Shown here: one piece after another, positions 14,760-55,356 of the stretch | How the letters are laid out: each line of letters starts with the position of its first letter | How positions within the stretch are numbered: the first letter of the stretch is position 1 | Assembly: GCA_963791425.1 (NCBI GenBank) | Contig: CAWBSE010000003.1 | Location: forward strand, 858,078 to 922,077 | Direction: 5' to 3' | DNA length: 64,000 nt | Origin: an uncultured Actinomycetes bacterium | GTDB lineage: Bacteria > Actinomycetota > Thermoleophilia > Gaiellales > Gaiellaceae | Program-made: the position numbers and the translations under genes | The notes under the pieces: model-generated | Told to the model about the DNA's origin: nothing | The model's database searches: none | The model's input: the letters and a program-made list of their open reading frames with translations, nothing else

Positions 14760-14768
14760 AGTGCGGGC

Positions 14769-26241: not shown

Positions 26242-26868
26242 TCAGGTCGATGTGATTCCGTGCTCGTTGGCCCAGATCGCCGCCTGCGTCCGGTCGTCGA
26301 CTCCGATGCGGCGGTACACACTCGTCAGGTGGGACTTGACCGTCTTCTCGCTGATCCCGAGCCGCCGTGCGATCAGCTTGTTCGGAGCCCCCTCGGCCAC
26401 GAGCGCCAGTACGTCCCGCTCGCGGTTCGTGAGCTCCTCGCCGGGGCGGCGCTCGGCGCGCACCGCGAGGAGAGCGGAGGCCGCCTTCGGTGAGAGCGGG
26501 GATTCGCCGCGGGCAGCAGCGCGGATACCGGAGATGAGCTCCTCCGGCTCGGCGTCCTTGAGCAGGTAGCCGATTGCGCCCGCATCGATCGCGGCCAGGA
26601 TCCGCTCACGGTCGGTGAACGAGGTGAGCACGACCACCTGGGTGTCGGAAGACGCCTCGCGGATTCGGCGGGTCGCCTCGACGCCGTCCAGCCTGGGCAT
26701 CGCGAGGTCCATCAGCACCACGTCGGGCGAGGTCTCTCGGGCGAGGAGAAGGGCCTCCTCTCCGTCGGCGGCAGCGCCGACGAGCTCGATGTCGGCCGCG
26801 GTGTCGACCAGCTTTCCGAGGCCGGCGCGGACGACTGCGTGATCGTCGGCGATCAGGACGCGGATCAC
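26242..26868 (-). CDS. NarL/LuxR-family response regulator
   Basis: REC domain (IRVLIADDH..DVVLMDLAMPRLDG) followed by a GerE HTH (LTNRERDVLALVAEGAPNKLIARRLGISEKTVKSHL). Confidence 0.9.
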   Translation of the reverse strand: MIRVLIADDHAVVRAGLGKLVDTAADIELVGAAADGEEALLLARETSPDVVLMDLAMPRLDGVEATRRIREASSDTQVVVLTSFTDRERILAAIDAGAIGYLLKDAEPEELISGIRAAARGESPLSPKAASALLAVRAERRPGEELTNRERDVLALVAEGAPNKLIARRLGISEKTVKSHLTSVYRRIGVDDRTQAAIWANEHGITST

Positions 26869-28157
26869 GTTCGCGGGACCTCGACGCGCAGGCGGGTGCC
26901 GGTGTCGGGAGCGGATTCCACCGTCAGCGTGCCGCCCGCCTTCTCGACCAGGTCTGCGACGAGGGCAAGTCCGAGATGGCCTTCTGCTGCCCGGCCGGGT
27001 GTGAAGCCCTGCCCGTCGTCGGCCACGATCAACGTCGCCGTCTCGTCCGGCGCCGAGACCGAGACGGCGACCGTCGAGGCGCCGGCATGCTTGACGACGT
27101 TCCTGATCGCCTCCTGGGCGGTCCGGAAGAGCAACGCCTGAACCTCGGGGCCGAGCCTGGCCTCATCCTCGACGTCGAGTTGGGCTTCCAGCCCGCGCGC
27201 CGTCGCCGATGCGAGGACGTCGGAGAGGGCTGCCTCGAGGCCGGACTGGGAGAGGCTCGGCGGGTAGATCTGGGGGAGGAGCGAGCGCAGGCTGCGCACG
27301 CTTCGCCGCGCCTCTCGCGCGGCCTTCCGAAAGGCGCTCGCGTCGTCGCCGTCGCTTCGCTCGGCAGCCGCGGCGAGCTCGTACGAGAGGCCCGCGAGGT
27401 CCTGGACGACCCCGTCGTGGAGGTCGGCCGCGATTCGCCGGCGCTCGAGATCGGACGACTCGATCGCCCGGGTCAGGAGCGTCTCGCGCTCGATCTGCCC
27501 ATGACGAACGCGGCGCGCCAGCGACACCGCGAGCGGGATCTGGATCAGGGCGAGGATTCCGAGGCCGACCAGCCACGCCGGGAGGAAGAGCAGCCAGATC
27601 CTCCTCGCGCTCGCGGCGATCGACCCGAACTCGAGGTACTGCTCGTACAGGACTGTCGAACCGTCACGCGCGTGCAGCGGGAGGTACACCTCGAGCAACT
27701 TGCCGTGCTCCCGTTCGAATCGGTTCTCGGGCCGCGAGAGGTCGCTCACCTCCGCCTCGGCCTTGCCGCCCTTGAACTCGCCGAGATCCTGCGGGGAGAG
27801 CGTGTAGCGGGAGCCGATCAGCCGAGGCTCGTCGGAGTAGACGATCGTTCCGTCTCTCCGCCAGACCTTGACCCGGACGACCGATCCGCCCAGAACGCGC
27901 TCCCGCACGATCCGGTCGAGCTGTGTGAGCGCAGCAGGGTCTTGAGCTGTGACGCCCGCGGTCAGCATGGGCTCGATGATCCCCTTCCCGGCGAGCTGGG
28001 TCTGCTCTCGCGCGTTCTTGATCGCCTCGGACGTGCCGGCCTTCCTGAGAATGAGGGAGACGCCGACGCCCACCAGGATCACCGCGACGAGGCCGACGAC
28101 GACGAACCGCGCGACGGCCTCGGACACCGAGATGGGCGCTGAGCGCCTGCGCGACAA
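26865..28157 (-). CDS. Sensor histidine kinase (HisKA_3 / NarX-type)
   Basis: Two TM segments flank a sensor loop. H-box RRRIAADLHDGVVQDL. HATPase region NVVKHAGA..DDGQGF. GTGA overlap with the regulator gene. Confidence 0.85.
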   Translation of the reverse strand: MSRRRSAPISVSEAVARFVVVGLVAVILVGVGVSLILRKAGTSEAIKNAREQTQLAGKGIIEPMLTAGVTAQDPAALTQLDRIVRERVLGGSVVRVKVWRRDGTIVYSDEPRLIGSRYTLSPQDLGEFKGGKAEAEVSDLSRPENRFEREHGKLLEVYLPLHARDGSTVLYEQYLEFGSIAASARRIWLLFLPAWLVGLGILALIQIPLAVSLARRVRHGQIERETLLTRAIESSDLERRRIAADLHDGVVQDLAGLSYELAAAAERSDGDDASAFRKAAREARRSVRSLRSLLPQIYPPSLSQSGLEAALSDVLASATARGLEAQLDVEDEARLGPEVQALLFRTAQEAIRNVVKHAGASTVAVSVSAPDETATLIVADDGQGFTPGRAAEGHLGLALVADLVEKAGGTLTVESAPDTGTRLRVEVPRT

Positions 28158-28786: not shown

Positions 28787-28859
28787 GGGCCGTTAGCTCA
28801 GTTGGTAGAGCAGGGGACTCTTAATCCCAAGGTCGAAGGTTCGAATCCTTCACGGCCCA
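28787..28859 (+). tRNA. tRNA-Lys (anticodon CTT)
   Basis: Hand-folded cloverleaf. Acceptor GGGCCGT/ACGGCCC, D-arm GCTC..GAGC, anticodon loop CTCTTAA, T-arm GAAGG-TTCGAAT-CCTTC, discriminator A. CCA is not encoded. Confidence 0.9.
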
Positions 28860-28861
28860 TC
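28818..28861 (+). repeat. att copy 1 (core inside the intact tRNA-Lys, anticodon loop to 3' end)
   Basis: CTCTTAATCCCAAGGTCGAAGGTTCGAATCCTTCACGGCCCATC is identical to 36382..36425. Shifted by 1 nt, it is identical to 41637..41680. Confidence 0.85.
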
Positions 28862-28970
28862 ACAGAAGCCCCTGCAAAGCCCTGGTTTCGGCCGGGACTT
28901 TGCGGTTTCTCGAGGGTCTACATCGGGCTAGGGGGCAACACACGGGGCAACACGCTGATATTGAGAGAGC

Positions 28971-29240
28971 GACCCGTTCCGCCATACCTGCGCGACGATG
29001 CTCTTTCGCCACGGCCTAAACGCGAAACAAGCGCAGGTCTGGCTCGGGCATCACTCGCCCGCGTTCACGCTCGCAACGTATGTCCACCTGCTCCCTGACG
29101 ACCTGCCAGACCCTGGCTTCCTCGACGGCATCACGGGGGCAACTGACCCCACCGAGAATGGGCGAAATGCCGAGGCCTCCGAGGCATGCGAAGCAGGGTT
29201 CGTTCCAAGCGAATCGACGGTAGCGGCGGCCGTCTCTTGA
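28971..29240 (+). pseudogene. Tyrosine recombinase/integrase, 5'-truncated remnant (C-terminal catalytic region only)
   Basis: In-frame reading DPFRHTCATMLFRHGLNAKQAQVWLGHHSPAFTLATYVHLLPDD matches the R-H-T..LGH..Y box II region. The frame opens only after a TGA at 28962. Confidence 0.7.
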
Positions 29241-29306
29241 TCGAAGGTCCGCCGACCACGTGCCGGCACTGGTCGACGCCCGCGACGGCGGGCTCGTGTT
29301 CGAGAG

Positions 29307-29331
29307 GGCGGCGGCCGTGATGGCCGCCGCC
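29307..29331. terminator. GC hairpin just 3' of the haloperoxidase-like gene
   Basis: GGCGGCGGCC-gtgat-GGCCGCCGCC, a 10-bp perfect stem. Confidence 0.5.
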
Positions 29332-29344
29332 TGTTCTCGTTCGG

Positions 29345-30679
29345 CTACTTGTTCGTCGGTTGGAAGTTCCCCTTCAGGTCGTACTGGGCGACCTGGGTGC
29401 CGATGTTGACGCCTGCAGTGGTGGAGAAGCGGTAGTGGAGGCCGGCCCAGACACGTGCGTTCGCGACGTTCTCGAGCAGGTCGTGGGCGGTCGCGAAGTG
29501 TTGGGAGGTGGTCAGAGTGGTGCCGCCGCCGGTTGCCCCGGGGACGTCGATGTTGACCGCAGACGTCTTCAGGACGGAGGCGAGCACCCCCGTGACGGCA
29601 GCGGTCACACAGCCGTGCTGGCTCGGGTACTCGGGGTGGTTGGGGGTGGTGATCAGCGGCGACCAGGCCGGGTCGGCCGTGGTGTTCGCATTCCCGTCCA
29701 GGCTCGCGCCACGGATCGCCGTGACCGGACGCCAGTACAGGTAGTGGTACTTGGAGTCCATGCAGGCGACGTGGGCGTCGGAGGCGACCATATTCCCCAT
29801 CGCCAGCAGCCTGACCGTGTCGACGAGGTCGAAATTGTGGCTCGTCGCGACGTCGCGAAAGACCTGGTTGTACTGGTTGATCACATTTGCGTTCCAGAAC
29901 AGCGCGGTCGCGGTCTGCGCCGCCGTCCTCGCGGTGCTCGTGGCCGAGCCCATCTTCTCGGTCTCGTTCAGGTCCGTGGCGTACTCGGGGCTCGTGATCG
30001 CCGGCGGAGCGGGAGCACGGAACTGGTCAGAGCTGTCGAGCATGAACGGCTTCACGTTTGCGAGCCACGGGGTCTGGGCCGACTGCGCCGACGGCGGCGG
30101 CGCGAACACCCAGGTGCCGGGCGCCTGCGGAGCGACACCGAACGCCGTCGAGACCGGAGCGTCGCGCCCGTCACCGAACTGGCTCACGATCAACTGGCTC
30201 GCGGCCGCCGAACCGACGGCGACCCCGGCCAGTCTCGCCTTCTCCGAAACCTGTGCCAGCGTCACGTTCAGGTAGTCGTTGTACGCCGACACGAGTGAAG
30301 GGGCGAGCGTCGGGAAGTAGTAGGAGAGCGTCGTGTACGCGGCGGCCGCGACCGCGGCGCGTGGCGAGGCGCCCGGTATCGCCTGCAGCGACGACCGGTA
30401 CGGCGCGTAGCGGCCCCTGATCGCCATCACCGCGTTGTACTCGGCCGCCTGCACATAGGCCATGTACAGCATCCCTTCCGGCTGGAACTTCGCCGGCGTC
30501 AACGCGGCCGAGCGCACGGTGTTGACCGCGATCACGTTCCAGTCCAGCGCCGCCTGCGGCGACAGCTTCGACTGGTCCTGCCGCACGCCCGACGCACCAG
30601 GCCCACTGACCAGGGTCGCCAGACCGGCAACGCCGAGCGCCGCCGTGACGAACAGCAAACGAAAACGGGCGAGTCTCAT
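29345..30679 (-). CDS. Secreted PAP2-superfamily, vanadium-haloperoxidase-like protein
   Basis: ATG at 30679 preceded by AAAGGGGGA. Signal peptide MRLARFRLLFVTAALGVAGLATLVSG. Motifs KYHYLYWRP, HPEYPSQHG and ARVWAGLHYRFS. Confidence 0.75.
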   Translation of the reverse strand: MRLARFRLLFVTAALGVAGLATLVSGPGASGVRQDQSKLSPQAALDWNVIAVNTVRSAALTPAKFQPEGMLYMAYVQAAEYNAVMAIRGRYAPYRSSLQAIPGASPRAAVAAAAYTTLSYYFPTLAPSLVSAYNDYLNVTLAQVSEKARLAGVAVGSAAASQLIVSQFGDGRDAPVSTAFGVAPQAPGTWVFAPPPSAQSAQTPWLANVKPFMLDSSDQFRAPAPPAITSPEYATDLNETEKMGSATSTARTAAQTATALFWNANVINQYNQVFRDVATSHNFDLVDTVRLLAMGNMVASDAHVACMDSKYHYLYWRPVTAIRGASLDGNANTTADPAWSPLITTPNHPEYPSQHGCVTAAVTGVLASVLKTSAVNIDVPGATGGGTTLTTSQHFATAHDLLENVANARVWAGLHYRFSTTAGVNIGTQVAQYDLKGNFQPTNK

Positions 30680-30765
30680 CCGAGATCCCCCTTTCTGCCG
30701 GGAGTCGATGCTCGAGGCGGCCGTGATCTTGAGCTTCCTGTTCATGTCTGCGATCTCCTTTCGAG

Positions 30766-30975
30766 TTACGGTGCGGGACGGTCGGTTGCCTCGCGAGGGG
30801 TGGTGGGCTGCGCTGCCAGCTCGGCGTGGAAGACGAGCAGCAGTGCCTCTTCGTGCGAGAGCGGCATGGAGTGGGCCTCCGCGGCGTGGCGCCTGACCTC
30901 CGCGATGAGCCCTTCCTCGTCCGCTGCGCGGGCCTCGAACCCGCACTCGCACGTGATCACCGCTCCCACTCGCAT
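30766..30975 (-). CDS. Small cytoplasmic Cys-x-Cys protein (loosely DUF1059-like), paralog A
   Basis: 69 aa: MRVGAVITCECGFEARAADEEGLIAEVRRHAAEAHSMPLSHEEALLLVFHAELA. Paralog of 34558..34777. Confidence 0.6.
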   Translation of the reverse strand: MRVGAVITCECGFEARAADEEGLIAEVRRHAAEAHSMPLSHEEALLLVFHAELAAQPTTPREATDRPAP

Positions 30976-30984
30976 CAGGCGAGG

Positions 30985-31002
30985 CTAGGCACCCGTCCCT
31001 AA
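30985..31002. promoter_or_regulatory. Inverted repeat CTAGG-N8-CCTAA, candidate operator between small gene A and the SARP gene
   Basis: CTAGGCACCCGTCCCTAA lies 9 nt from the small-gene start. It matches 15/18 positions of the repeat at 34530..34547. Confidence 0.45.
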
Positions 31003-31027
31003 AACGAGGCAAGATGGCGGCAACCGA

Positions 31028-34000
31028 ATGGCTAACACGCTGAGGCTGAAGGTCTCCGTCATCGGTCGCGTCGCGGTCGAGACCGACGGCGCCGTGATCG
31101 ACGAGGCCCAGCTCGGAGGCCGGCAGGGACGGCTCCTGTTCGCCTACCTCGTAGCCGAGCGGAGCAGGCCGGTTCCGCGGGACGAGCTCGCCGAGGCGCT
31201 CTGGGGCGAGACGCCGCCCGCGACCAGAGACAAGGCGCTGACAGTGATCGCCAGCAAGCTCCGTGGCGCGCTCGCAGACACCGGACTCGACGGCCGGGAG
31301 CTGTTGACAGCGGCGTTCGGCTGCTACCGGCTCGACCTGCCCGAGGGGACTTGGGTCGACCTGTTCGCAGCCGAGAGCAGCGCACAGGACGCGGAAGAAG
31401 CGCTCGCCGCAGGTGAGCTCGACCAGGCACGGGCGGCGGCTGAGTCGGCGGAGTCACTGGCGCACCGGCCGTTCCTGCCCGGTGAAGACGGAACGTGGGT
31501 CGAGCAGAAGCGACGCGACCTCGCCGACATCCGCGAGCGCGCGTTGAGCGTCCTTGCCGATGCGTGCCTACGCTTGGGTGCCGCGCGGGAGGCGGCAAAG
31601 TGGGCCGAGGAACTGATCGCGCTCTCGCCGTTTCGCGAGAGTGGATACCGCCATCTGATGGAGGCACACGTCGTCGCGGGAAACCGCGCCGAGGCGCTTC
31701 GCGTGTACGAGAAGTGCCGGCAGCTTCTCGCGGAGGAGCTCGGCGCGTATCCATCGCCGGAGACAGACTCGATCTACCGTGCACTGCTGGAGGCACCGCA
31801 GACGTCCGTTCGAACGACGCCGGTCGCCGAGCCGACGGTCGAACCCGGTACGTCCGAGCTCTCGCAAGTCCAGACGGAGGCGCTACGGCTCCAGGCGGAG
31901 CAGGTAGTCGAGCGACGGTCGCGGAAGCGCGGCGCACTCCTTCTCGCTGCGCTCGCCAGCGTGATCGCTGCGGCGGTCGTGATCCCGCTCGTGGCGTTCG
32001 GTGGAAGCGGAGGCCGCTCGGCCGTCTCGCCGGCCGGAGACTCGCTGGCGGTCGTCGACGCGCGCTCGGGCCGCCTTGTCGCTGCCACCGGCGTGGGCGC
32101 GACACCCACGGCCGTCGCGGCCGGCGAAGGTGCGTACTGGGTCACCAACGCCGATGGCCACACGGTGTCGCGGATCGACCCCGGAACGACCGCCGTCGTC
32201 GACACGATTCCGGTTGGCAACGGCCCGAGCGGGATCGCGACTGGCGCCGGCGCGGTCTGGGTGGTCAACAGCTTCGACAGCGCGGTCTCGCGGATCGACC
32301 CGGGCACGAACACGGTCGTCCAGACGATCCCCGTCGGGAGCGGCCCGCGCGGGATCCTCTACGCGGCCGGCTCGGTCTGGGTCACGAACACCGGCGACGG
32401 AACGATCACGAGGATCGACCCCGACAGCGGCGGGACGACCAAGACGCTCCCGGTCGCCGCGACCGAGCTCGCCTTCGGCGCAGGCACGCTGTGGGCGAGC
32501 GAGCCTGCGGCGGGCCAGGTGGTTCGCATAGATCCGACCACCGGGAAGCAGGTCGCCGTGATCCAGGTCGGGAACGGCCCGACGGGGATCGCCTTCGGCC
32601 AAGGCTCGGCGTGGGTGACGAACAGTCTGGACGGGACGGTTTCCCGGATCGATCCCGAGACGAACTCCGTCACCGCACTCGTTCCCACCGGCAACGGGCC
32701 AGATGCGGTGGCCGTCGGCCCACGTGGCATCTGGGTGACCAACCAGTTCGGCGGCGACGTCGTGCGGATCGATTCCGGCCGGAACCAGGTGGCGCAGCGG
32801 GTGAGCGTGGGAAGCCGTCCGTCGGGATTGGCGATGTCGGGCGGGGCCGTGCTCGTCGCCGTCCGTCAGTCGGGCGCCGGCCACCGCGGCGGGACGCTCG
32901 TGCTGCGGGCTGACCGGCTCAAGCAGGGGGACATCGTCGACTCCATTGATCCCGCCGTTTCCCTGTACACGTACGTCTATCCATTCCTGCGGATGACCGG
33001 CGACGGCCTCGTCGCGTTCAACCAGGTCAGCGGTCTGGCGGGAACGCAGCTCGTGCCCGACCTCGCGACGTCGCTGCCGACGCCGACCGACGGCGGCCGC
33101 ACGTACACATTCCGGCTCCGGCCGGGCATCCGCTACTCGACCGGCAGGCCGGTGCGGGCGACGGACTTCCGCTTCACCCTCGAACGCTTTTACGCGCTCC
33201 TATCCCCCGTGACGGACTACGACGGGATCGTCGGCGGCGCGCAATGCCGGAAGCATCCGAAACGGTGCGACCTCTCGCGCGGGATCGTCGCCAACGACGT
33301 TGCCCGCATCGTGACCTTCCACCTGGTCCGGCCGGACCCCTACTTCCTCCACAAGCTCGCCGGCCCGCCCGCCTACGTGCTGCCGGCCGGCACGCCGCCG
33401 CGGCCGGCCGGAACGCACCCGCTGCCCGCGACCGGCCCCTACATGATCGCGACCTACAGGCCGAGGAGACTGCTCAGGCTCGTCCGCAATCCGTTCTTCC
33501 ACGAGTGGTCGCCCGCCGCTCAGCCGGACGGATACCCCGACCGCATCGAGATCCGCATCGCCGGCACCCCGGACGACGCGATTCGCGACGTCGTCGACGG
33601 CAAGTCCGATGTCGTCTGGCTGTCCCAGCCGTGGCACCCGTCGCAGCTGTCGAGGGTCGAGGTCCGGTACGCGAGCCAGCTCCACTCCGACCCGAGCTGG
33701 AACTTCCAGGTGCTCTTCCTCAACCCTCGCGTCCCGCCCTTCGACCGGCTCGACGCCCGTCGGGCGGTGAACTTCGCCGTCGACCGCGCTGCGGCGACGA
33801 ACGCCTGGGGCGGGCCGCGCTTCGCCCAGATCACGTGCCAGATGCTGCCGCCGAACTACCCGGGCTACAGCCCCTACTGCCCGTACACCGCCGGCTCGAC
33901 GAAGAGCGGAGCGTGGACGGCACCCGACCTGGCGAGGGCGAGAGCGCTCGTGGCACGCTCGGGGACACGCGGCATGAAGGTCACCCTCTGGGCGTGGTCG

Positions 34001-34465
34001 CAGGCAGAGGGCTTCAACCGAGTGGCCGTGAAGGTGCTCCGCTCGCTCGGCTACCGCGTGGCCGTCAAGCCGGTCGTCGGCGACCGATACTGGAGCGTCG
34101 TCGGTGACTCGCGCAACCGGGCGCAGATCGGGTTCAACGGCTGGGCCCTGGGGTACCCGGACCCGGCGCCGTTCTTCGATCAGTTCAGCTGTCGAGCGTT
34201 CCTGCCCGGGAACCCCGCCAACCTCGGAAGCGGGCTCTGCGACCCGGGCATCGACCGCCAGATGCGCAGGGCGCAGGCAGAGCAGCTGAGCGACCCGATC
34301 GGGTCGCGCGCACGCTGGGCCCGCGTCGACCGCGAGGTCACCGACGCGGCACCGTGGGTGCCGCTCATGTTCTCGAAGAACGTGAACTTCCTCTCCAAGC
34401 GCGTCGGCAACTACCAATACAACCCGCAGCAGTTCGTGCTCATCGACCAGCTCTGGGTGCGGTAG
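31028..34465 (+). CDS. Membrane-tethered SARP-type regulator: wHTH + BTAD, single TM, about 7 YVTN beta-propeller repeats, family-5 solute-binding domain
   Basis: 1145 aa. N-terminus RDELAEALWGE..BTAD (LSPFRESGYRHLMEAHVVAGNRAEALRVYEKCRQLL). TM ALLLAALASVIAAAVVIPLVAF. Repeats VSRIDPGTN.VV.TIPVG.GP.GIA. C-terminus GGTLVLR...YTFRLRPGIRYSTGRPV is SBP_bac_5-like. Confidence 0.85.
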   Translation: MANTLRLKVSVIGRVAVETDGAVIDEAQLGGRQGRLLFAYLVAERSRPVPRDELAEALWGETPPATRDKALTVIASKLRGALADTGLDGRELLTAAFGCYRLDLPEGTWVDLFAAESSAQDAEEALAAGELDQARAAAESAESLAHRPFLPGEDGTWVEQKRRDLADIRERALSVLADACLRLGAAREAAKWAEELIALSPFRESGYRHLMEAHVVAGNRAEALRVYEKCRQLLAEELGAYPSPETDSIYRALLEAPQTSVRTTPVAEPTVEPGTSELSQVQTEALRLQAEQVVERRSRKRGALLLAALASVIAAAVVIPLVAFGGSGGRSAVSPAGDSLAVVDARSGRLVAATGVGATPTAVAAGEGAYWVTNADGHTVSRIDPGTTAVVDTIPVGNGPSGIATGAGAVWVVNSFDSAVSRIDPGTNTVVQTIPVGSGPRGILYAAGSVWVTNTGDGTITRIDPDSGGTTKTLPVAATELAFGAGTLWASEPAAGQVVRIDPTTGKQVAVIQVGNGPTGIAFGQGSAWVTNSLDGTVSRIDPETNSVTALVPTGNGPDAVAVGPRGIWVTNQFGGDVVRIDSGRNQVAQRVSVGSRPSGLAMSGGAVLVAVRQSGAGHRGGTLVLRADRLKQGDIVDSIDPAVSLYTYVYPFLRMTGDGLVAFNQVSGLAGTQLVPDLATSLPTPTDGGRTYTFRLRPGIRYSTGRPVRATDFRFTLERFYALLSPVTDYDGIVGGAQCRKHPKRCDLSRGIVANDVARIVTFHLVRPDPYFLHKLAGPPAYVLPAGTPPRPAGTHPLPATGPYMIATYRPRRLLRLVRNPFFHEWSPAAQPDGYPDRIEIRIAGTPDDAIRDVVDGKSDVVWLSQPWHPSQLSRVEVRYASQLHSDPSWNFQVLFLNPRVPPFDRLDARRAVNFAVDRAAATNAWGGPRFAQITCQMLPPNYPGYSPYCPYTAGSTKSGAWTAPDLARARALVARSGTRGMKVTLWAWSQAEGFNRVAVKVLRSLGYRVAVKPVVGDRYWSVVGDSRNRAQIGFNGWALGYPDPAPFFDQFSCRAFLPGNPANLGSGLCDPGIDRQMRRAQAEQLSDPIGSRARWARVDREVTDAAPWVPLMFSKNVNFLSKRVGNYQYNPQQFVLIDQLWVR

Positions 34466-34495
34466 GACAGCGCCGACAGGACGATGCCGCAGTGA

Positions 34496-34549
34496 TCTAG
34501 CCACGGTCTAGGCGCGAGCTTGCCGGTTCCTAGGCACCCATTCCTAGCC
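34496..34549. promoter_or_regulatory. CTAG-rich region holding inverted repeat CTAGG-N8-CCTAG, upstream of small gene B
   Basis: Four CTAG tetramers at 34497, 34508, 34530 and 34544. The inverted repeat is at 34530..34547, 10 nt before the GTG at 34558. Confidence 0.45.
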
Positions 34550-34557
34550 TCGGGTGC

Positions 34558-34777
34558 GTGGAGATCGTGGACAAGACGCTCACCTGCGACTGCGGATTCA
34601 TCGCCCGGGCCCCCGACGACGCCGGACTCGCCACCGAGGTTCTTGCGTCACGCCTGGGAGGCCCACGGGATGCGGCTCTCGCACGACGAAGCGCTGCTGC
34701 TCCTGTTCCACGCCGAGCTGGCAGAAGCGACCAGGATCCCCCCGCGACCACAGACCGCAACGGAAAGGGAGGAGTAA
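34558..34777 (+). pseudogene. Small Cys-x-Cys protein, paralog B, one frameshift near 34645
   Basis: MEIVDKTLTCDCGFIARAPDDAGLATEV (ORF 34558 frame) continues as LRHAWEAHGMRLSHDEALLLLFHAELAEA (ORF 34520..34777 frame). It is colinear with paralog A. Confidence 0.55.
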
Positions 34778-35958
34778 TGAAGCGAGCAATGCTGGCAGCC
34801 ATCGGGCTGCTCTCACTGAGTGTGTTCGTGCTTGCGGCGGCAGCCGCAGTCTGCACGACCAGGTACGTGTCACCGTCGGGCGTGGACAACGCGACCTGCA
34901 GCAAGAACAGCCCGTGCAAGCATGTCCAGCAGGCGGTCAACGTCGCCTCGGCCGGCGACACGATCTCGCTTGCCAAGGGCAGCTACGTCGAGCAGGTGTC
35001 GATCGCGAAGGATCTGACCCTGACCGGGGCAGGCTCCGGAGCGAGCACGATCTCTGCACCTGCCGTCGCGCTCGTGCCGGACAGCCACGGGTTCCTGAAC
35101 ATCGTCGAGATCAACAGCGGCGCGAGCGTTCGGATGAGCAACTTGGCTGTTGCCGGCCCCGGCCCTGGACCCTGCAACAGCATCGACAGGGGGATCTCCG
35201 TCATCGAGGGGGCGTCGCTCGCGCTCACGCGGGCGGCGGTCAGCGACATCCGCGACAACTTGCCGAGCAACGACTGTAACAACGGCTTCGGCGTCGGTGC
35301 CGGCACCCAGATCCGCGGCGGTCAACTCACGCCCGATCCTGAGGTCGGCCACCTCACCATCGACCACACCACCGTGACCGGCTACCAGAGAGCCGCGATC
35401 TTCGTCATCAACGACGGCTCGACCGGGCAGATCGACCACAACACCGTCAAGGGCACGCCCTGCAGTGTCTGTGCCGGCCCCGGCGGAATCGGGGTGTTTT
35501 TTGGTGGTTCGGCGACCATCGATCACAACACGATCAGCGGCAACGAATGCAACGACTCGGACTATGGGTGCGGCTCGGACTGGTTCAACAACTATCAGTC
35601 GTGGGGCGTTCTCACGATCGGGGCTGCCTCGTCGACTGTGATCTCACACAACAGCCTGAACACGAATGACGGAGGCATCTACACCGACACCGGGGTCACG
35701 ATCGACCACAACGACGTGGCCTCCCGCTACTTCGGCATCGCGACCGACTACGGGAACGCGGCGCAGGTCGATCACAACTCGACGACCGGCGGCGTCTACG
35801 GGATCTACGAGTTCGGCGGAACCGGCACCTTCAGCCACAACTCGGCGAGCGGCAGCTCGGGCGCCGATCTCTGGTGGGACGGCACCGGCACGCCCAGCTT
35901 CAGCCACAACAGCTGCGGTACGGCATCGCCCAGCAAAGCGATCTGGCACTGCCATTAG
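34777..35958 (+). CDS. Secreted right-handed parallel beta-helix repeat protein (pectin-lyase fold, Cys-rich)
   Basis: ATG at 34777 after GGGAGGAG, overlapping the upstream TAA by 1 nt. Signal peptide MKRAMLAAIGLLSLSVFVLAAAAA. RYVSPSGVDNATC..AGDTISLAKGSYVE plus repeated IDHN(T/S) turns. Confidence 0.8.
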   Translation: MKRAMLAAIGLLSLSVFVLAAAAAVCTTRYVSPSGVDNATCSKNSPCKHVQQAVNVASAGDTISLAKGSYVEQVSIAKDLTLTGAGSGASTISAPAVALVPDSHGFLNIVEINSGASVRMSNLAVAGPGPGPCNSIDRGISVIEGASLALTRAAVSDIRDNLPSNDCNNGFGVGAGTQIRGGQLTPDPEVGHLTIDHTTVTGYQRAAIFVINDGSTGQIDHNTVKGTPCSVCAGPGGIGVFFGGSATIDHNTISGNECNDSDYGCGSDWFNNYQSWGVLTIGAASSTVISHNSLNTNDGGIYTDTGVTIDHNDVASRYFGIATDYGNAAQVDHNSTTGGVYGIYEFGGTGTFSHNSASGSSGADLWWDGTGTPSFSHNSCGTASPSKAIWHCH

Positions 35959-35997
35959 CCGCCGTCGCACACCAACGCGACCACCGAGCACGACCAG

Positions 35998-36024
35998 CTG
36001 GAGCCCCCGGGAAGGGGGCTCCAG
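35998..36024 (+). terminator. GC hairpin after the beta-helix gene
   Basis: CTGGAGCCCCC-gggaa-GGGGGCTCCAG, an 11-bp perfect stem. Confidence 0.55.
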
Positions 36025-36054
36025 CGCCGCCGAACCGGAGGAACCCGCGTTCCA

Positions 36055-36170
36055 GGGCACCACTCCCCCGCCTTCACCCTCTCGGTCTACGTTCTGCCTC
36101 TTGGCCGACGAGCGCCCGGAAGTCTCGATCCTCGACAGCCCGTCCGAGGCAATGGCGGGGCAACCCACAT
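36055..36170 (+). pseudogene. Second, more degraded tyrosine-integrase 3' remnant
   Basis: GHHSPAFTLSVYV, then (after a frame slip) LLADERPEVSILD. Nucleotide-level similarity to 29046..29160 (GHHSPAFTLATYVHLLPDDLPDPGFLD). Confidence 0.4.
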
Positions 36171-36381
36171 ACCGAGCTGGGTTCGTACATGGCGTGTTGG
36201 TTCTTCCGACTCTCCCTGGAAATTGAGGGAATGGACCTAACCGGACTCGAACCGCCGTCGATTGGGGCAACGCAGGGGCAACATGACCTACCGAATCCGG
36301 CCGAAACCCGGCGTCGTCGGAGAGGCTGGAATCGGCCTGAAACGAAGCTCCACCGAGGCCGGCCGAGACTGCGCGCCGCTT

Positions 36382-36425
36382 CTCTTAATCCCAAGGTCGA
36401 AGGTTCGAATCCTTCACGGCCCATC
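36382..36425 (+). repeat. att copy 2 (tRNA-Lys 3' half only)
   Basis: 44/44 identity to 28818..28861. The upstream sequence has no tRNA 5' half. Confidence 0.85.
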
Positions 36426-36484
36426 GCAAAAGCCTCGCTAACCAGGGTTTTTTTATGCCTCGAGCCTCGCTGCGGTGTGGCGGC

Positions 36485-36513
36485 GCAGGGCGCGGGCAGT
36501 GCCCACGCCCTGC
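36485..36513. terminator. GC hairpin 3' of the NHL-repeat gene
   Basis: GCAGGGCG-C-GGGCA-G-TGCCC-A-CGCCCTGC, a nested perfect stem. Confidence 0.5.
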
Positions 36514-36533
36514 GTCCAGCCCGACTCGAGCGG

Positions 36534-37778
36534 CTACTTCGCGCTCGCCGGAACGCTCACCGTGACCTTGCGCGTCTCGGTGGTCAGACGCCCGTTGGTC
36601 TTGAGGACGATCGTGAAGGTGGCGGCCGTCGTGCTGCCCGCGACCTTCGAGAGGGCGGCTTGCGCCAGGGGTATCTCGATCGCGGTCGTCTTGCCCGCGG
36701 CGACCTTCACGGTCGCCTTGCCGGCGACGCCCTTCCCCGTGAGGCTCGCCGTCGCGTCCACCTGCGCCGGGCAGGCGACGTTGGTGAGGGCGTACCTCAC
36801 TCTGGCGACGTAGCCCCTCGGACCCTTCGCCACGACCAGCCGAACGGGCACGGCCGCCGCCGCCGGCTTCGAGCGGTCCTCGGCGAAGTGGATGACGCTG
36901 TGCGTGGCACCGTCGTACGCATAGAGGTCGCCGGTGGGCCCGACGGCGACGTCCTGCGGTTGCAGGTCCCCGGAGGTGGCCGTCGCGAGGATCCTGCCCG
37001 CCGGCGAGTATTTCACCAGGCTCCGCTTCGGGACGTTCGTCGACCAGACGTTGCAGTCCGGGTCGATGCCGATGCCGGTGTAGACGCCGGCACCGGCAGT
37101 GGCCGGTAGCTGGAGCCTGATCGTCGTCAGCAGCTTGCCACTCGAGTCGAAGCGCTTGACGGTTGGCGGCGAGCCTCTCTGATCTGCCACGTAGATGCTG
37201 CCGTCGGCGGACGCCTCGACGTCGCCTGGAACCTGAAAGCCCGTCGCCCAGGTCCTTGCTCCCGCCCATCCGGTGGACGTCTTGTCGAAGCGAACGACGA
37301 CGTGTGTGGTATCGCCGTTGGTGGAGACGTACACGTTCCCCGCCGCGTCGACGGCGATACCTTCCGCCCCCTTGGGTGTGCCGAGGTTCTCGGCCTGTCC
37401 GCCGCCCTTCGGGAACCGCCGTGCCTGCGCCGCCTGCTGAGCGGTGCCCCACACGTCGCCCTCCGGGCCGACGGCCACGTCCTCGACGAATTCCGAAGCC
37501 GCAAACGCGAGCTTCTGCTGGAACGCGCCCTTCGACGAGAAGATCTGGATGCGATGGCCATCGGAATCCGCGACGTACACGTTGCCGGCCTTGTCGGTGG
37601 CGAGCCCGAGCGCGTTGGCCGGGAACTGGCCGTTCCCCGTGCCGGGCTTGCCCCAGTGCCCCACCACCTTGTATGCAGGCCCTGCAGTCCCGGCCTCCTC
37701 GGCGGCCGTCGCACCGGCCGCACAGGCTGCGGCGGCGACGAGCGCCGACAGGGCGATCTTCAACCTTGCTCCCTTCAC
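36534..37778 (-). CDS. Secreted NHL-repeat beta-propeller protein with C-terminal Ig-like region
   Basis: GTG at 37778 after GAAGGAGGG. Signal peptide. Repeats GNGQFPANALGLATDKAGNVYVADSDGHRIQIFS, GIAVDAAGNVYVS and DGSIYVADQ. Confidence 0.8.
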   Translation of the reverse strand: MKGARLKIALSALVAAAACAAGATAAEEAGTAGPAYKVVGHWGKPGTGNGQFPANALGLATDKAGNVYVADSDGHRIQIFSSKGAFQQKLAFAASEFVEDVAVGPEGDVWGTAQQAAQARRFPKGGGQAENLGTPKGAEGIAVDAAGNVYVSTNGDTTHVVVRFDKTSTGWAGARTWATGFQVPGDVEASADGSIYVADQRGSPPTVKRFDSSGKLLTTIRLQLPATAGAGVYTGIGIDPDCNVWSTNVPKRSLVKYSPAGRILATATSGDLQPQDVAVGPTGDLYAYDGATHSVIHFAEDRSKPAAAAVPVRLVVAKGPRGYVARVRYALTNVACPAQVDATASLTGKGVAGKATVKVAAGKTTAIEIPLAQAALSKVAGSTTAATFTIVLKTNGRLTTETRKVTVSVPASAK

Positions 37779-38044
37779 GATCCCTCCTTCGTGTCGCTTT
37801 CGATGGTCTCGGTGATGCGCGCATCCGTGAGGCCCGACCTGCTCGCCGCCTCGAGGAGGGCCTCCCGTGAGGAGGCCTCGAAGACGTGGAAGCACGTCTC
37901 GTCCTCGGCGACGTACATCGTCCGGACATAGCGCACCGCCGCTTCGCTCCGGGCCTTCCGGTCTCCCACCATGCGAGCCCTGGCGGCGGCCTCCTCGAGG
38001 GCCTGCCCCCTGGGCATGTAGAGCTCGAGCAGGTACCGGGGCAT
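37775..38044 (-). CDS. DUF4242-like small protein
   Basis: ATG at 38044: MPRYLLELYMPRG...RYVRTMYVAEDETCFHVFEASSREALLEAASRSGLTDARITE. GTGA overlap with the NHL gene. Confidence 0.6.
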   Translation of the reverse strand: MPRYLLELYMPRGQALEEAAARARMVGDRKARSEAAVRYVRTMYVAEDETCFHVFEASSREALLEAASRSGLTDARITETIESDTKEGS

Positions 38045-38219
38045 TCGCCCGGTCACCGCCCCGTGTCGAGACCCGGGTCTCGCGTGAGCAACGTCTCGCC
38101 CATCATGGGTGGCGTGGCGGCGCCGGTACCGGCACCGGTCGCGTCGGGTTCCCTGGCACCTGGTCAGGCACCCTTGGCGAGCAGCGCGACCGACCAACGG
38201 AGCAGTCCGGCCCTGCGTC

Positions 38220-38714
38220 TCACTGGCCGGTGTGAAGCGGGTCGCGGGCGGCCTTCTTCGAGAACGCCCTCAGGTCAGCGGCGACGGCGCGCAGCGAGGC
38301 AAGCAGCTTTGCGTCGGCGAGCGGGCTGCCGACGAGGAGTGACGGGTCTACCGCCATGATCTGGGCCCGGAGCTCCTTCTGGTCCCCGCTCGTGAAGCCG
38401 AGCTTCGCGAGTACGGCGGTGAGCTGCGCCGGCAGGCCCTTCCTGACGAGCGCGTCCTGGAACGCGTACGCGTCATCCTCCGAGACGGACAGATCCGGAG
38501 TATCGGGAGTCCAGAACGCCGACGTCGTCAGAGCAAGAAGGGGCCCAACCAGGACGTCGTACGCGTACGCCACCTCGATCGGATTGACCGTGATGTTGAT
38601 GTTGCCGGCGCCCGGACGAGCGCTCGCGGGCGTCGCGAGCAGGGTCGCCACCAGCCCGGCTGACGCGAGCGACACGGCCAGCGCGCGTGCCCGGCGTCTC
38701 TTCCGTTGCACCAT
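38220..38714 (-). CDS. Secreted hypothetical protein
   Basis: ATG at 38714. Arg-rich n-region plus signal MVQRKRRRARALAVSLASAGLVATLLATPASA. No domain recognised. Confidence 0.5.
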   Translation of the reverse strand: MVQRKRRRARALAVSLASAGLVATLLATPASARPGAGNINITVNPIEVAYAYDVLVGPLLALTTSAFWTPDTPDLSVSEDDAYAFQDALVRKGLPAQLTAVLAKLGFTSGDQKELRAQIMAVDPSLLVGSPLADAKLLASLRAVAADLRAFSKKAARDPLHTGQ

Positions 38715-38760
38715 CGAACCAGCGTGGCGGCGCGCCGCATCCGCGGCAACGGGGAGATCC

Positions 38761-41532
38761 CTAGGGTTTGCTCCCGGTGCCGGCCAGCCGCCGTGCGAGC
38801 TCAACGCGGGAGCGGACGCCGAGCTTGCGGTAGACGTTGCCGAGGTGGAACTCGACCGTCTTGACGCTCACGAAGAGCGCCGCCGCGATTTCCTTGTTGG
38901 CCTTCCCCTGGGCGACGAGCTCCGCCACCTGCCGTTCGGCGGTCGTCAGCTCCCCGCTCGACGGCGTCCGGCCGCCGAGCCGGGCGATCTCCCCGCGTGC
39001 ACGGTCCGCCCAGAGGGCGGCGCCGAGCCGCTCGAAGGCGGTGAGCGCAGCCTCGAGCGAGCGACGGGCATCTAATCGCTTGCGCGCGCGTCGCTGCACC
39101 TGGCCCAGCGCGAGGAGGGTGCGCGCACGCTCGAAGGGCTGCGGGAGCCGCTCGCCGATCTCCAGTGCGCGGCGCAGCTCGGCGACGGCACCCTCGACGT
39201 CCCCCCGGGCGGCGGAGAGGAGCCCACGACAGCGTGCCGCGGTCGCGAGTGCCCACGGGCTCGAGAGCGTGCTTCCCCGTTCCTCGAGGTGCACGACGAG
39301 CTCCTCGGCCTCGTCGAGCTCTCCGAGGATCACAAGAGCCTCGATCAGGTCCGGCAGCACCGGGTTGAGGTTCGGCTGACCGTAGCCGCGTGCGGCGTAG
39401 ATGCCCGGGAGCGGCCGCAGCCGGCCGACCGCCGCCTCGGCGCCGCCGACGGACAGCTCGAGGAAGCCGAGAACGCCTTCGACGTGGAGCCGGTGGACGG
39501 CGTCGCCCGCGGCCTCGGAGGCGGCGAGGCTTCGCGCGCCCCAGGCTCGGGCCTCCTCGACCCGGCCGAGATGCGCGGCGACCATCGCCTCTGCGTAGGC
39601 GGCGGTGCTCTCGTTGCTCGAGCCCGACTCCTGGAAGACCGCGTGGCTGTCGTGGGCGTAGGCCTCCACTCGCTGCCACTCTCCCGCCCGGATCTCGAGC
39701 TGCACGAGGTGCAACTGCAGCACGGCCCGCGCGTACTCGTCGGCCTGGTCGCCGGCATCGCCGTACGCCCGCTCGAGCAGCTCCCGCGCCTCGTCGAGGC
39801 GGTCGTCGAACATCAGCCGCAGGCCGAGCACGATGCTCGGCCGGTACCACGGGGGAAGCCCTCCGACCTCCTCCTCGAGCTCGAGCGCGCGCTCGAGGAG
39901 CCCTGGGGTGATCTCCGCGGTGAGGCTCTCGATGTGGGCGAGGTCGGCGAGCGCCATCGCCAGCGCAGGTGTATCCCCGGTGCGCTCGGTGAGCTCGATG
40001 GCCAGGCGCGCATGCTCGGTCGCTCGCCCGAGATCGCCCATGACGATCCAGGTGTCGACGAGGTGGCGGTGGATCTCGGCCTCGAGCGCTGCGTCGCCGC
40101 GGGCCTCGTCGAGCGCCTCCTGGTAGACCCCTGCGCAGATCTGGAGGTTCTCCTCCCGTGCGCGCACGGACAGAACCAGGGCCCGCGCCCGTTCGGGACC
40201 GGCGGGGAGCTCGCCGAGCAGCTGGACGACGAGCTCCTCGGCGTTCGCGAACCGACCCGAAGCGAAGCCGTGCTCGGCGACGAGGATCGTCCGCCGCTGC
40301 CGCGCCGATATCTCCTCTTCGGGCGTGAGCCTGAGCGCGAGCTCCGCGAGCTCGACCGCGACGTCGTGAACGCCGCGTCTGGCGGCACTGTGGACGGCGA
40401 GTTCCAGCTCCGCGGCGATCTCCTCGGACGGTTCTCCGGCGCTGAGCGCGAGGTGCCGGGCGCGCTCCTCCGGATCGGGGACGACCTCGGCCAGACGCCG
40501 GTGCACCGCTTGCCTGCTCGCGCGACCGGCATCGGCGTAGACCACCGAGGCGAGCAGCGGATGGGTGAAGCGAATCGAATCCGCGGAGAACTGGATCACC
40601 TGGCCCTCGAGGGCGGGTCGCAGAAGACGGTCCGTGCTGTCCCCCCCGAAGGTGAGCTCGAGAAGCTCGACGGTGGGATGCGAGAGAGCGGCAACGGCGA
40701 GGAGCGCAGTGCGCGTGTCCTCGGGCAGCAGCACGATCCGTCCGCGAACGAGGTCGTGCAGGTTGTCGGGGACCGGAAGCGGCTGTCCGGGCTCCAGTGC
40801 CTGCCCACTCCGCTCGAGCGCACGGACGATCTCGAGGGCGAACAGCGGGTTCCCCTCGGTGGTCTCGTGCAAACGACGTAGAGCCTGCCGCGGGAAGTCA
40901 GCGCCGAGCTGGATTCGGACGACACGTCCCAGGGCGCCGAGACTAAGCGGGCCGACCTCGATCCGCCGAAGGTCGCCGCCCGCAAACGCCCGGTCGAGGC
41001 CGAGCGGCGCCTGAGATTCGCCTTCGCTGCGCGTCGAGAGGAGCAGTCTGATCGGATCGCCCCGGAGCCTGCGGGTTGCGTACTCGAGCACCCCGGCCGA
41101 AGGCCCGTCGAGCCACTGAACGTCGTCCACCGCGACGAGGACGGGGCCGCGGGCAGCCAGCGCGCGCAGCGCGTTGAGGAAGGAGGCTGCGATCGCGCCG
41201 GGTCCCGGAGCAGCCTGATCCGGCTCGGAGCGAAAGAGAGCTATCGCCAAGGTGCGCCGCTGCGGCTCGGGGAGCTCGTCGGCGATCTCATCGAAGCGGT
41301 CGTCCAGCAGGTCGCGGAGCGCCGAGAGCGAGAACTGCGTCTCGGAGCCGCTCGGGTTGCACGGAAGCACCGTCTGGCCACGGGCCTGCGCCTCCTCGAT
41401 CCCGACGTGCCAGAGTGTCGTCTTCCCGATGCCGGCCTCTCCGTCCAGCACGAGCGCGCTCGGAGCATCGTCGCCGAGGAAGGCCAGAATGCGCGCAACC
41501 TCCTCGTCCCGCCCGACGACCTCGCCCGCCAT
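38761..41532 (-). CDS. LAL/MalT-type large ATP-binding LuxR-family regulator (AAA/STAND NTPase, TPR-like repeats, GerE HTH)
   Basis: Walker [13 protein letters not shown]. Walker [14 protein letters not shown]-terminal [39 protein letters not shown]. Confidence 0.9.
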
Positions 41533-41636
41533 TCGTCTCGTCTAGCACATGGGAGACGCGCATGGAAGCCGAAGCCTGTCGAATCGTGCCCGTGGCAGGA
41601 ATCCGTTGGGACGGGGCTAGGCTGGGGCCGGTCACC

Positions 41637-41680
41637 ACTCTTAATCCCAAGGTCGAAGGTTCGAATCCTTCACGGCCCAT
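41637..41680 (+). repeat. att copy 3 (tRNA-Lys 3' half; probably the displaced ancestral 3' end)
   Basis: 44/44 identity to 28817..28860. A hairpin follows at 41714..41733. Confidence 0.85.
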
Positions 41681-41713
41681 GAGGCGCAGCAAAGGGGCAG
41701 CGCAGGCGCGCGT

Positions 41714-41733
41714 CCTCCCCCCGACGGGGGAGG
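41714..41733 (+). terminator. Hairpin after the distal tRNA-Lys 3' half
   Basis: CCTCCCCC-cgac-GGGGGAGG, an 8-bp stem. Confidence 0.4.
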
Positions 41734-41822
41734 GAGCGGAACTTCGCTCGGTCGAGGGGCTGCGCCGTTCAGGCACAGGAGTCTCCGCAGGGCCAGGCTG
41801 TCTGCACGCTGCCGTAACGTCC

Positions 41823-42287
41823 ATGGCGATGGCGCGGACGAGCTACATCGAGAAGCGGATGGGCAAGTTCCTCCGCGAGCCGCCGACGGTCCGCGGTGCG
41901 GCGGGCACGATCGTCTTCGCCACGGCCGGCGTCGTGGTCATCAGCGGCGTTCTGATCCGGGTGTTCGACCACAAGGAGTACGCCAACATCTGGGTCGGGA
42001 TGTGGTGGGCGATCCAGACGGTCACCACCGTCGGCTACGGCGATGTCACGCCCGCCGACCCCACCGGCCGCGTCATCGCAACCTTCGTGATGCTCGAGGG
42101 GATCGCGTTTTTGGCCATCCTCACCGCTGCGATCACGTCCACCTTCGTCGCGCGGGCGACGAAGGAGCATGAGGCGTCGTACACAACGGATGAGCTGACG
42201 GAGATCCAGAAGATCGAGTCGCGGTTCGACGACCTCGACCGCAAGATCGACCGGATCGAAGCCGCGCTTCGCGGTCGCGGCTCCTGA
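41823..42287 (+). CDS. Two-TM potassium channel (KcsA-like pore)
   Basis: ATG at 41823. Selectivity filter TTVGYGD between two TM helices. Coiled-coil-like C-terminus. Confidence 0.85.
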   Translation: MAMARTSYIEKRMGKFLREPPTVRGAAGTIVFATAGVVVISGVLIRVFDHKEYANIWVGMWWAIQTVTTVGYGDVTPADPTGRVIATFVMLEGIAFLAILTAAITSTFVARATKEHEASYTTDELTEIQKIESRFDDLDRKIDRIEAALRGRGS

Positions 42288-55295: not shown

Positions 55296-55322
55296 CGCGG
55301 GAGTATGGCGCAGGACCAGGCG

Positions 55323-55356
55323 CGTCTCGGGGACAGACCCATACCTGTCCCCGAGA
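55323..55356 (-). terminator. Strong hairpin between the collagen-like gene and moxR
   Basis: GTCTCGGGGACAG-acccatac-CTGTCCCCGAGAC, a 13-bp perfect stem. Confidence 0.55.

Follow-up and report, generated by a model that had tools for sequence, protein, structure and literature searches.

The window analyzed here is a stretch of 64,000 nt from contig CAWBSE010000003.1 of an uncultured actinomycete (GenBank assembly GCA_963791425.1), and all coordinates are given as window positions. The 12.8 kb lying between its tRNA-Lys(CTT) gene and a K+ channel gene are interpreted as a tandem array of decayed integrative elements belonging to one integrase/HTH_17-excisionase family, a reading to which we assign a probability of about 0.85. 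It is carried by exact repeats of the 3' part of the tRNA gene, relics of integrase genes, attachment arms beside the repeats, an architecture shared with other loci of the family, a compositional shift and an accessory gene cargo. The features of the array are collected in Table 1.

Repeated tRNA-Lys cores

The tRNA-Lys gene is the only tRNA gene of the window according to both ARAGORN and Rfam. A 43-mer contained in it, CTCTTAATCCCAAGGTCGAAGGTTCGAATCCTTCACGGCCCAT, is present in three copies on the plus strand with 0 mismatches, at 28818-28860, 36382-36424 and 41638-41680. This repeat was absent from 100 dinucleotide shuffles of the window and none is expected by chance. When compared pairwise to copy 1, each of the other two copies displays an exact identity of 44 nt, extended by one base to the right for copy 2 (28818-28861 = 36382-36425) and to the left for copy 3 (28817-28860 = 41637-41680). 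The identity block begins at the first anticodon-loop base (tRNA position 31/32) and extends to 1-2 nt beyond the discriminator, and upon alignment no tRNA 5' half could be recognized in the 31 nt preceding copies 2 and 3. tRNA-targeted islands with an anticodon-centered attP (class 'A') are reportedly described in Williams 2002 (NAR 30:866).

The segment 41680-41750, downstream of copy 3, folds with a minimum free energy of -36.8 kcal/mol (z = -1.95) and contains a hairpin that is a candidate for the native terminator or processing stem of the tRNA. Copy 1 is followed at 28864-28910 by a bulged, terminator-like stem (z = -1.9). An earlier note on this DNA, made from the sequence alone, had placed the tRNA gene and the two 44-nt copies at these same positions and had described both the missing 5' halves and the contrast between the hairpin past the distal copy and the imperfect stem past the first one; the exact pairwise identities, the alignments and the folds agree with it on all these points. 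A promoter-like block located upstream of the tRNA gene, GGGCTACACTACGCAGCCCGC, is also present in two other loci, L018 and L082.

Attachment arms

The sequences adjoining the cores were compared to profiles of the arms found upstream (P) and downstream (P') of the cores in related loci. The P'-arm profile, derived from 5 other loci, matches 28872-28966 after copy 1 (nhmmer, E=6.3e-8), and a repeat pair of the form GGGGCAAC-N4-GGGGCAAC is found within this arm at 28932-28951. The P-arm profile, built without the window, matches twice: at 29119-29223 (P arm A, E=6.1e-12) and at 36254-36379 (P arm B, E=2.8e-17). In P arm B, the paired repeats are followed by the blocks CCGAA..GGCCGAAAC and CCGAG..GGCCGAG, and the whole arm aligns with those of L028, L035, L029, L079 and 12 other loci. 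P arms A and B are only 61% identical to each other; they are therefore not a recent duplicate and come from different source elements. P arm A is immediately followed, at 29234, by CTCTTGATCGAAGGTC, which is similar to the initial 17 nt of the core.

The repeat GGGGCAAC occurs 8 times in the window versus 1.5 expected, and six of these eight occurrences lie in attachment arms or integrase tails. At the sequence level, the arms and cores are complete in the unit delimited by copies 1 and 2, hereafter A+B, which is the only one to possess a full attL/attR pair. The unit delimited by copies 2 and 3 (island C) has no upstream arm and its P' arm is degenerate. The possibility that a minus-strand, T-loop-like stretch at about 36240-36262 is a tRNA fragment in reverse orientation was rejected, as the stretch shows no T-arm fold and is called by no tool.

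Integrase relics

Two integrase relics accompany the arms. The frame of remnant 1 opens 105 nt past copy 1 and 13 nt past the P' repeats, reads ...FRHTCATMLFRHGLNAKQAQVWLGHHSPAFTLATYVHLLPDDLPDPGFLD... and ends with a TGA stop at 29238-29240, the position of the anticodon-loop TAA. It represents the C-terminus of a tyrosine recombinase: the second arginine, the histidines and the tyrosine are present, and only RHT...GHH...Y is kept. Using tblastn, residues 316-368 of the full-length integrase of L035 were aligned to 28977-29135 with 85% identity (E=5e-26), and the same region is matched by 120/120 of the homologues considered, these being the best 120 of the homologue search. In remnant 2, about 13 conserved codons at 36055-36093 correspond to residues 339-351 of the L035 integrase and are matched in tblastn by 134 family fragments, with a best E=4e-6. 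A degenerate repeat pair in the tail of this remnant (36148-36164) might, on weak evidence, mark a further event.

Neither remnant contains the complete R-K-H-R-H/W-Y catalytic set in one open reading frame (ORF), remnant 2 keeping only GHHSPAFTLSVYV. The L035 integrase aligns at only these two places of the 64-kb window, where no intact family integrase is found, and no integrase relic is present in island C. Likewise, tblastn queries with the element proteins of L031 and L035 found no intact int, xis, AAA_25 or other element gene in the window. Integrase-like tblastn matches at 24311-24610 and 41374-41514 (E=0.004-0.03) were attributed to chance, as the full-length integrase matches neither of them; the latter was discounted also as lying antisense within the well-supported AAA_16 domain of the LAL gene.

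The integrase family and its attachment sites

A metagenome scan performed with an alignment of integrase fragments gave 79 loci with 81 integrase hits. Forty-one of these are full-length-like, defined by a frame that stays open for 300 or more codons ahead of the conserved C-terminal block, while 23 have an interrupted frame (<300 open codons) and 17 are cut by the end of a contig. The first homologue search had returned fragments of 58-160 aa, as if the family were known solely as relics. This idea is contradicted by the many full-length genes of the metagenome loci, and the fragment-only impression is therefore an artefact of candidate selection. In this search, which was word-seeded with a 91-aa C-terminal query, the best 120 hits were all 58-160 aa long despite the existence of many members of about 400 aa; short queries seem to favor short database entries.

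The L035 integrase (396 aa) has Phage_integrase and SAM-like domains with the full catalytic set, and is preceded by an HTH_17 excisionase. Both L031 and L035 are tRNA-Lys(CTT) elements carrying Type I restriction-modification (R-M), AAA_25, xis and int genes. As a side observation, L031 (255-5799) and L035 (36-5172) are the more complete elements, with an HsdR/S/M defense cargo and AAA_25 located beside xis-int. The best matches of a full-length family integrase in phage and plasmid collections are less than 31% identical, and a scan of 2.9 million viral contigs with the integrase alignment gave 1 distant relative (44% identity). The C-terminal catalytic block is 70-98% identical across tRNA targets; its 53 aa were tried as a tracker of the target tRNA and abandoned, since a block this conserved among all targets is uninformative.

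The layout of the attachment sites is constant across about 20 independent loci. A repeat pair, (G)GGCAAC-N4-5-GGGCAAC, ends about 100 nt before the tRNA-derived core and is followed by the conserved blocks CCGAAAC..GGCCGAAA and CCGAG..CCGAG. The T-loop is found 117-141 nt downstream of this pair, most often at 119 nt. The arm homology among loci stops exactly at the start of the anticodon loop (CTnnnAA), and a second repeat pair is located 60-75 nt downstream of the intact tRNA, beyond a terminator-like hairpin. In pSAM2 and lambda-type systems, the core is flanked by arm-type repeats, and by analogy with the latter the repeat pairs are putative arm-type binding sites of the integrase.

At least six tRNA cores are used by the family (Lys-CTT, Lys-TTT, Thr-CGT, Met-CAT, Gln-CTG and Arg-TCT). 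The 43-nt Lys core of the window also bounds the elements of L032, L033, L035 and L038, and in L032, L033 and L038 the stop codon of the integrase is the anticodon-loop TAA of this core. The integrase gene and the core are separated by cargo in L028 and L035, and the integrase directly follows the tRNA in L057 and L058; the gene order thus varies within the family.

Three loci offer parallels to the decay seen in the window. L028, on an Actinomycetota contig, displays at tRNA-Thr(CGT) three exact cores bounding islands of 3.5 and 6.5 kb (5102-15178), the second of which contains a P' arm, a decayed excisionase, a frameshifted integrase, an NTPase/WD40 cargo and a P arm. In the 35 core-proximal nt of the latter, 31 positions match P arm B of the window despite the different cores. 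L029 (12549-18704 and 14294-15062) is a mosaic of orphan 3' parts of tRNA-Met(CAT) (three copies) and of a tRNA-Thr-like gene (two copies, reversed) with two integrase relics, and no intact tRNA-Met or tRNA-Thr gene is found within 20 kb. In L082, tRNA-Lys(CTT) is accompanied, as in the window, by a P' arm and an integrase truncated at its 5' end, with a deletion end-point unlike that of the window. Decay beside the tRNA is therefore recurrent in the family. The cargo of L028 is of the nSTAND/WD40/PG-binding type.

The attachment sites look modular, near-identical P and P' arms being combined with different tRNA cores. We propose, tentatively, that the window could be one instance of an undescribed and abundant family of small integrative elements with modular attachment sites, spread among soil Actinomycetota of the Thermoleophilia/Gaiellaceae type; the odds are somewhat against it. 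Were this the case, the family would constitute a natural series of tyrosine-integrase retargeting and A+B, devoid of an integrase, would be a cis-mobilizable element still moved in trans by its sister elements.

Composition and comparison with related genomes

Genes were called by third-position G+C (GC3), since the G+C content of the window is about 70%, and were named by Pfam. The mean GC3 of the island genes is 0.868 versus 0.916 in 26 flanking genes (one-sided Mann-Whitney p=5e-4), and across 27-42 kb the tetranucleotide usage is more distant from that of the remaining window.

In order to find an empty site, the K+ channel protein was compared to 185,579 species genomes. Its relatives place the organism among uncultured Gaiellaceae/Thermoleophilia-like Actinomycetota, and in none of these channel relatives (53-73% identical) is a tRNA-Lys gene followed by the channel gene in the window orientation. 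A related metagenome-assembled genome, L018, has seven left-flank genes in common with the window (61-92% amino acid identity) in addition to the promoter-like block of the tRNA. It contains one tRNA-Lys(CTT) gene and neither repeat, arms nor integrase, so that its tRNA-Lys site is unoccupied. The compositional comparison suggested in the earlier note does separate the islands from their flanks, by a modest margin, but the empty site that it expected, tRNA-Lys followed directly by the K+ channel gene, was not found: L018 is unoccupied and was nevertheless rejected as a true empty site, its channel homologue being convergent and its right flank different.

L024 was also rejected, as the tRNA found 152 nt upstream of its channel homologue (9777-10001) is tRNA-Arg(CCT) and not tRNA-Lys. 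The K+ channel gene and the next two genes are syntenic in L001 and L002, where tRNA-Lys is not adjacent. The proximity of the channel genes to tRNAs in L024 and L018 may be a coincidence or may reflect a tendency to occupy tRNA-linked variable spots. The response regulator/histidine kinase pair of the left flank (26242-28157, minus strand) is missing from L018 and has island-like GC3 values of 0.876 and 0.884; the 5' side of the tRNA-Lys gene may also be a variable spot.

Proposed history of the array

The following scheme is drawn from the family and from the established knowledge of tRNA-targeting integrases. Each element would have inserted itself through site-specific recombination of its attP with the 3' part of the tRNA gene. 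The attP would have consisted of a P arm with paired GGGGCAAC, the 43-nt core and a P' arm in which a second repeat pair accompanies a terminator hairpin. The crossover would have occurred in the anticodon loop, the core of the element rebuilding the tRNA and the old 3' part being moved downstream. Repeated insertion and deletion, in a presumed order of events, left the array tRNA/core 1, stump A, island B, core 2, island C, core 3 and chromosomal flank. Stump A (28861-29249, about 0.4 kb) is composed of a P' arm, the last 80 or so integrase codons, a P arm and a vestigial core. Island B (29250-36381) comprises the PAP2-like, DUF1059, SARP-fusion and DUF1565-like genes, together with an integrase relic of 13 codons and a P arm that is intact. 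Island C (36425-41637) contains the genes for the NHL protein, an unassigned secreted protein and the LAL regulator; its P' arm is degenerate and its P arm missing. The two P-arm matches, together with the vestigial core following the first of them, imply at least three insertions.

The insertion into the tRNA 3' half by an integrase, as put forward in the earlier note, is supported by the relics, the family arms beside the cores, the accessory cargo and the shift in composition, and its statement that only integrase fragments remain holds upon translation and tblastn. Its tandem accretion stands as well, but the count of two islands is too low, stump A being additional. It had also considered the array as probably immobilized. 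This is correct in cis, since the window has no intact integrase; movement in trans is possible in principle, since A+B keeps both arms. Judging from its gene content, nothing in the window can catalyze excision. Excision of A+B would be predicted to leave a junction made of the tRNA 5' half, the core and CGCAAAAGCCTCGC; excision of the whole array, a junction made of the tRNA 5' half, the core and GAGGCGCAGCAAAGG; and excised circles would show a junction such as GACTGCGCGCCGCTT + core + CACAGAAGCCCCTGC.

A number of observations weigh against this reconstruction. Taken as a sequence match, the vestigial core at 29234 lacks significance, 101/500 shuffles scoring as well; it is rendered credible by its position next to P arm A and by the integrase stop occupying the anticodon-loop position, as seen also in L032/L033/L038. 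By itself, the P' arm after core 2 falls short of significance (nhmmer E=1.2), and the P-arm profile finds no family P arm in the 105 nt before core 3, so that the assignment of island C to the family depends on its core and on a weak similarity. The compositional shift is modest, with no difference in G+C content between island C (0.707) and the flanks. The right flank of L018 is non-syntenic, with a K+ channel homologue (59% identical, 6789-7430) in convergent orientation, and the search yielded no genome of the same species with a clean empty site. Finally, all three cores are perfect although the integrases are nearly gone, for which we have no quantitative explanation; perfect cores fit with recent events or with the short length of the core.

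Alternative explanations

A+B, or perhaps the whole array, could be a working cis-mobilizable element (CIME), moved by a cognate int/xis pair supplied by a sister element located elsewhere in the genome. The family profiles give strong matches at both ends of A+B (core 1 and its P' arm; P arm B and core 2), all cores are free of mismatches, and related soil bacteria (L035, L032, L038) harbor intact integrases and excisionases of the family together with the same Lys core; CIME-type accretion and cis-mobilization are moreover documented (PMC5704250). The 64-kb window, however, contains no intact integrase of the family and island C has no P arm, and we regard a still functional element as unlikely, if somewhat less so than the other alternatives. 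The array might also have arrived en bloc, as a composite of already decayed islands integrated as one unit. Transfer of whole composites of a CIME and an integrative and conjugative element (ICE) is known (PMC5704250), and the divergence of the P arms indicates units that are old relative to each other, yet their cores are perfect. Such an integration would nevertheless require a P arm at the outermost right junction, where there is none; nothing in the window is able to move a 12.8-kb composite and no related locus with the same composite was found in the species-genome and metagenome searches, which makes this scenario improbable.

The window belongs to a metagenome-derived contig, and the tRNA halves could accordingly be viewed as an assembly artefact, or else as segmental duplications arising from replication or repair, instead of integrase footprints. 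The unique sequences bordering the cores differ from one core to the next, and family arms and integrase relics accompany two of the cores in the positions observed in about 20 independent loci. The same layout is found at other tRNAs in independent assemblies (L028, L029), and the LAL gene beside core 3 is present on an independent Logan contig. Taken together, these data leave very little room for an artefact, and the array of decayed integrative elements remains the preferred reading.

Gene content of the array and its flanks

Table 1. Features of the tRNA-Lys(CTT) array and of its right border, in window coordinates
Feature	Coordinates	Strand	Evidence and remarks
Intact tRNA-Lys(CTT)	28787-28859	+	ARAGORN; Rfam tRNA 73.9 bits
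att core 1	28818-28860	+	Provides tRNA-Lys 3' part from position 32
P' arm of attL-type junction	28861-28966	+	Bulged hairpin 28864-28910, then repeat pair
Integrase remnant 1	28965-29240	+	Last ~80 codons of a ~396-aa tyrosine integrase (FRHTCAT...LGHHSPAFTLATYVHLL...)
P arm A	29119-29233	+	Within tail of integrase remnant 1
Vestigial partial core (putative)	29234-29249	+	CTCTTGATCGAAGGTC vs CTCTTAATCCCAAGGTC; local alignment; terminates stump A
PAP2 / vanadium-haloperoxidase-like secreted protein	29345-30679	-	VCPO_2nd 1.4e-7, PAP2 6.9e-6; signal peptide MRLARFRLLFVTAALGVAGLATL; GC3 0.894
Small DUF1059 gene	30766-30975	-	Pfam 1.8e-6; upstream of PAP2 gene
SARP-type regulator fusion, 1145 aa	31028-34465	+	Trans_reg_C + BTAD N-terminus, beta-propeller, SBP_bac_5 (Pfam)
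DUF1059 paralogue, apparently frameshifted	~34560-34770	+	Upstream of DUF1565-like gene
DUF1565 / pectin-lyase-like repeat protein, secreted	34777-35958	+	Pfam DUF1565 1e-3, weak; signal peptide in translation
Integrase remnant 2	36052-36170	+	GHHSPAFTLSVYV and scrambled tail
P arm B	36254-36381	+	Paired GGGGCAAC repeats 36264-36282; ends exactly at core 2
Core 2	36382-36424	+	Orphan tRNA-Lys 3' part; P-O-P' hybrid junction; exact repeat
Degenerate P' arm of island C	36425-36533	+	AAAAGCC..GGGTTTTTTT terminator-like stretch and decayed repeat region; alignment
NHL-repeat beta-propeller protein, secreted	36534-37778	-	Pfam NHL 1.9e-16, SGL 1.5e-8
Secreted protein, no Pfam match	38220-38714	-	Signal-peptide-like N-terminus
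LAL-type LuxR regulator, 923 aa, ATP-binding	38761-41532	-	Pfam AAA_16, TPR_12, GerE
Core 3	41638-41680	+	Distal orphan tRNA-Lys 3' part, attR-type; exact repeat
Hairpin after core 3	41713-41734	+	9-bp G+C stem (fold)
2-TM K+ channel gene, right flank outside islands	41823-42287	+	Pfam Ion_trans_2 2.5e-14

The description of the cargo as regulators and secreted proteins, already given in the earlier note, is accurate. No conjugation or replication domain was detected by Pfam in the island proteins, the tblastn queries with the L031/L035 element proteins being negative as well, and no phage structural or packaging gene appeared in the Pfam scans. The unusual fusion of SARP, beta-propeller and SBP_bac_5 domains suggests a one-component sensor-regulator. 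A protein identical to the LAL regulator was found by exact-protein look-up on a 3.1-kb Logan contig of run ERR12035933 and on a contig of more than 1 Mb, and nowhere else; the same look-up gave no record for the K+ channel or its 640-aa neighbor.

The two DUF1059 copies form an 80-nt inverted repeat (30813-30892 / 34645-34724) that is 85% identical, and they align over about 280 nt with 73% identity. A shared RNA leader or operator was considered for this repeat and rejected, since Rfam found nothing and the repeat consists of the paralogous small DUF1059 ORFs. Each paralogue adjoins a gene for a secreted protein, the two pairs being mirrored around the SARP-fusion gene, which looks like a small regulon of duplicated cassettes.

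To the left of the tRNA are found genes for a UDP-glucose dehydrogenase, a UDP-GlcNAc 2-epimerase and a LuxR-type response regulator with its histidine kinase. At the other end of the window, the 55000-64000 region contains cytochrome oxidase genes and displays the most atypical tetranucleotides with the lowest G+C content (0.64-0.68). A COX1 ORF located there (60793-61584) matches only profile positions 251-435 and could be a truncated or frameshifted gene, or an assembly error.

Comparison with known systems

Accretion at tRNA genes is a well-known route for the acquisition of accessory genes, and the array described here is an ordinary case that changes no established concept. It accounts for a 12.8-kb accessory block in which two large regulators and four secreted proteins are encoded beside small DUF1059 genes. 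The arm profile, with paired GGGGCAAC about 100 nt before and 60-75 nt after the core, provides a signature for the detection of decayed islands of this family in metagenome-assembled genomes of Actinomycetota, and the many tRNA targets of the family are material for studying integrase retargeting. The combination of modular arms with many tRNA cores might be the sole aspect worth further study.

The family resembles the actinomycete integrative and conjugative elements (AICEs) of the pSAM2 type and the tyrosine integrases of mycobacteriophages by its attB in a tRNA 3' part, an identity of 40-60 nt, an Int accompanied by an HTH-type Xis and arm repeats on both sides. In contrast to AICEs, the window has no replication or transfer genes, and the intact relatives carry Type I R-M and AAA_25 genes instead of the classic AICE modules. 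ICESt1 and the CIME of Streptococcus thermophilus were reportedly described in Pavlovic 2004 and Bellanger 2011.

In Islander islands, an element-borne copy restores the tRNA gene and a displaced fragment marks the far end (PMC4383910; Hudson, Lau & Williams 2015). The window likewise combines an intact tRNA gene with two exact 3' fragments of 43/44 nt that share its replicon and orientation, and with traces of a tyrosine integrase, and its identity block, extending from the anticodon loop to the tRNA 3' end, corresponds to the class 'A' sublocation with an anticodon-centered attP. Tandem arrays are listed in that data set, with 125 arrays of at least two and 4 of at least three members among 3919 islands, and an integrase gene is demanded for each tandem member (PMC4383910). 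The window differs in this respect, as it holds relics of 13 and about 80 codons only, with none in island C, so that an Islander-type pipeline would miss or merge its islands.

The scheme of tandem accretion and CIMEs has been laid out for streptococcal elements and for Streptomyces pathogenicity islands (Guedon 2017, PMC5704250). As in CIMEs, the integration and transfer genes are lost and the units are stacked head-to-tail at the 3' end of the target gene (PMC5704250). CIMEs also keep attL and attR, for which A+B has candidates that are complete at the sequence level. Unlike the streptococcal CIMEs, the array resides in an uncultured Thermoleophilia-like actinomycetote, its integrase family is unrelated, no functional partner is adjacent and one arm of island C is lost. 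Because the integrase expected by Islander is lacking and no conjugation, replication or phage module is present, it is classed as a decayed, CIME-like tandem array and not as an ICE, an AICE or a prophage.

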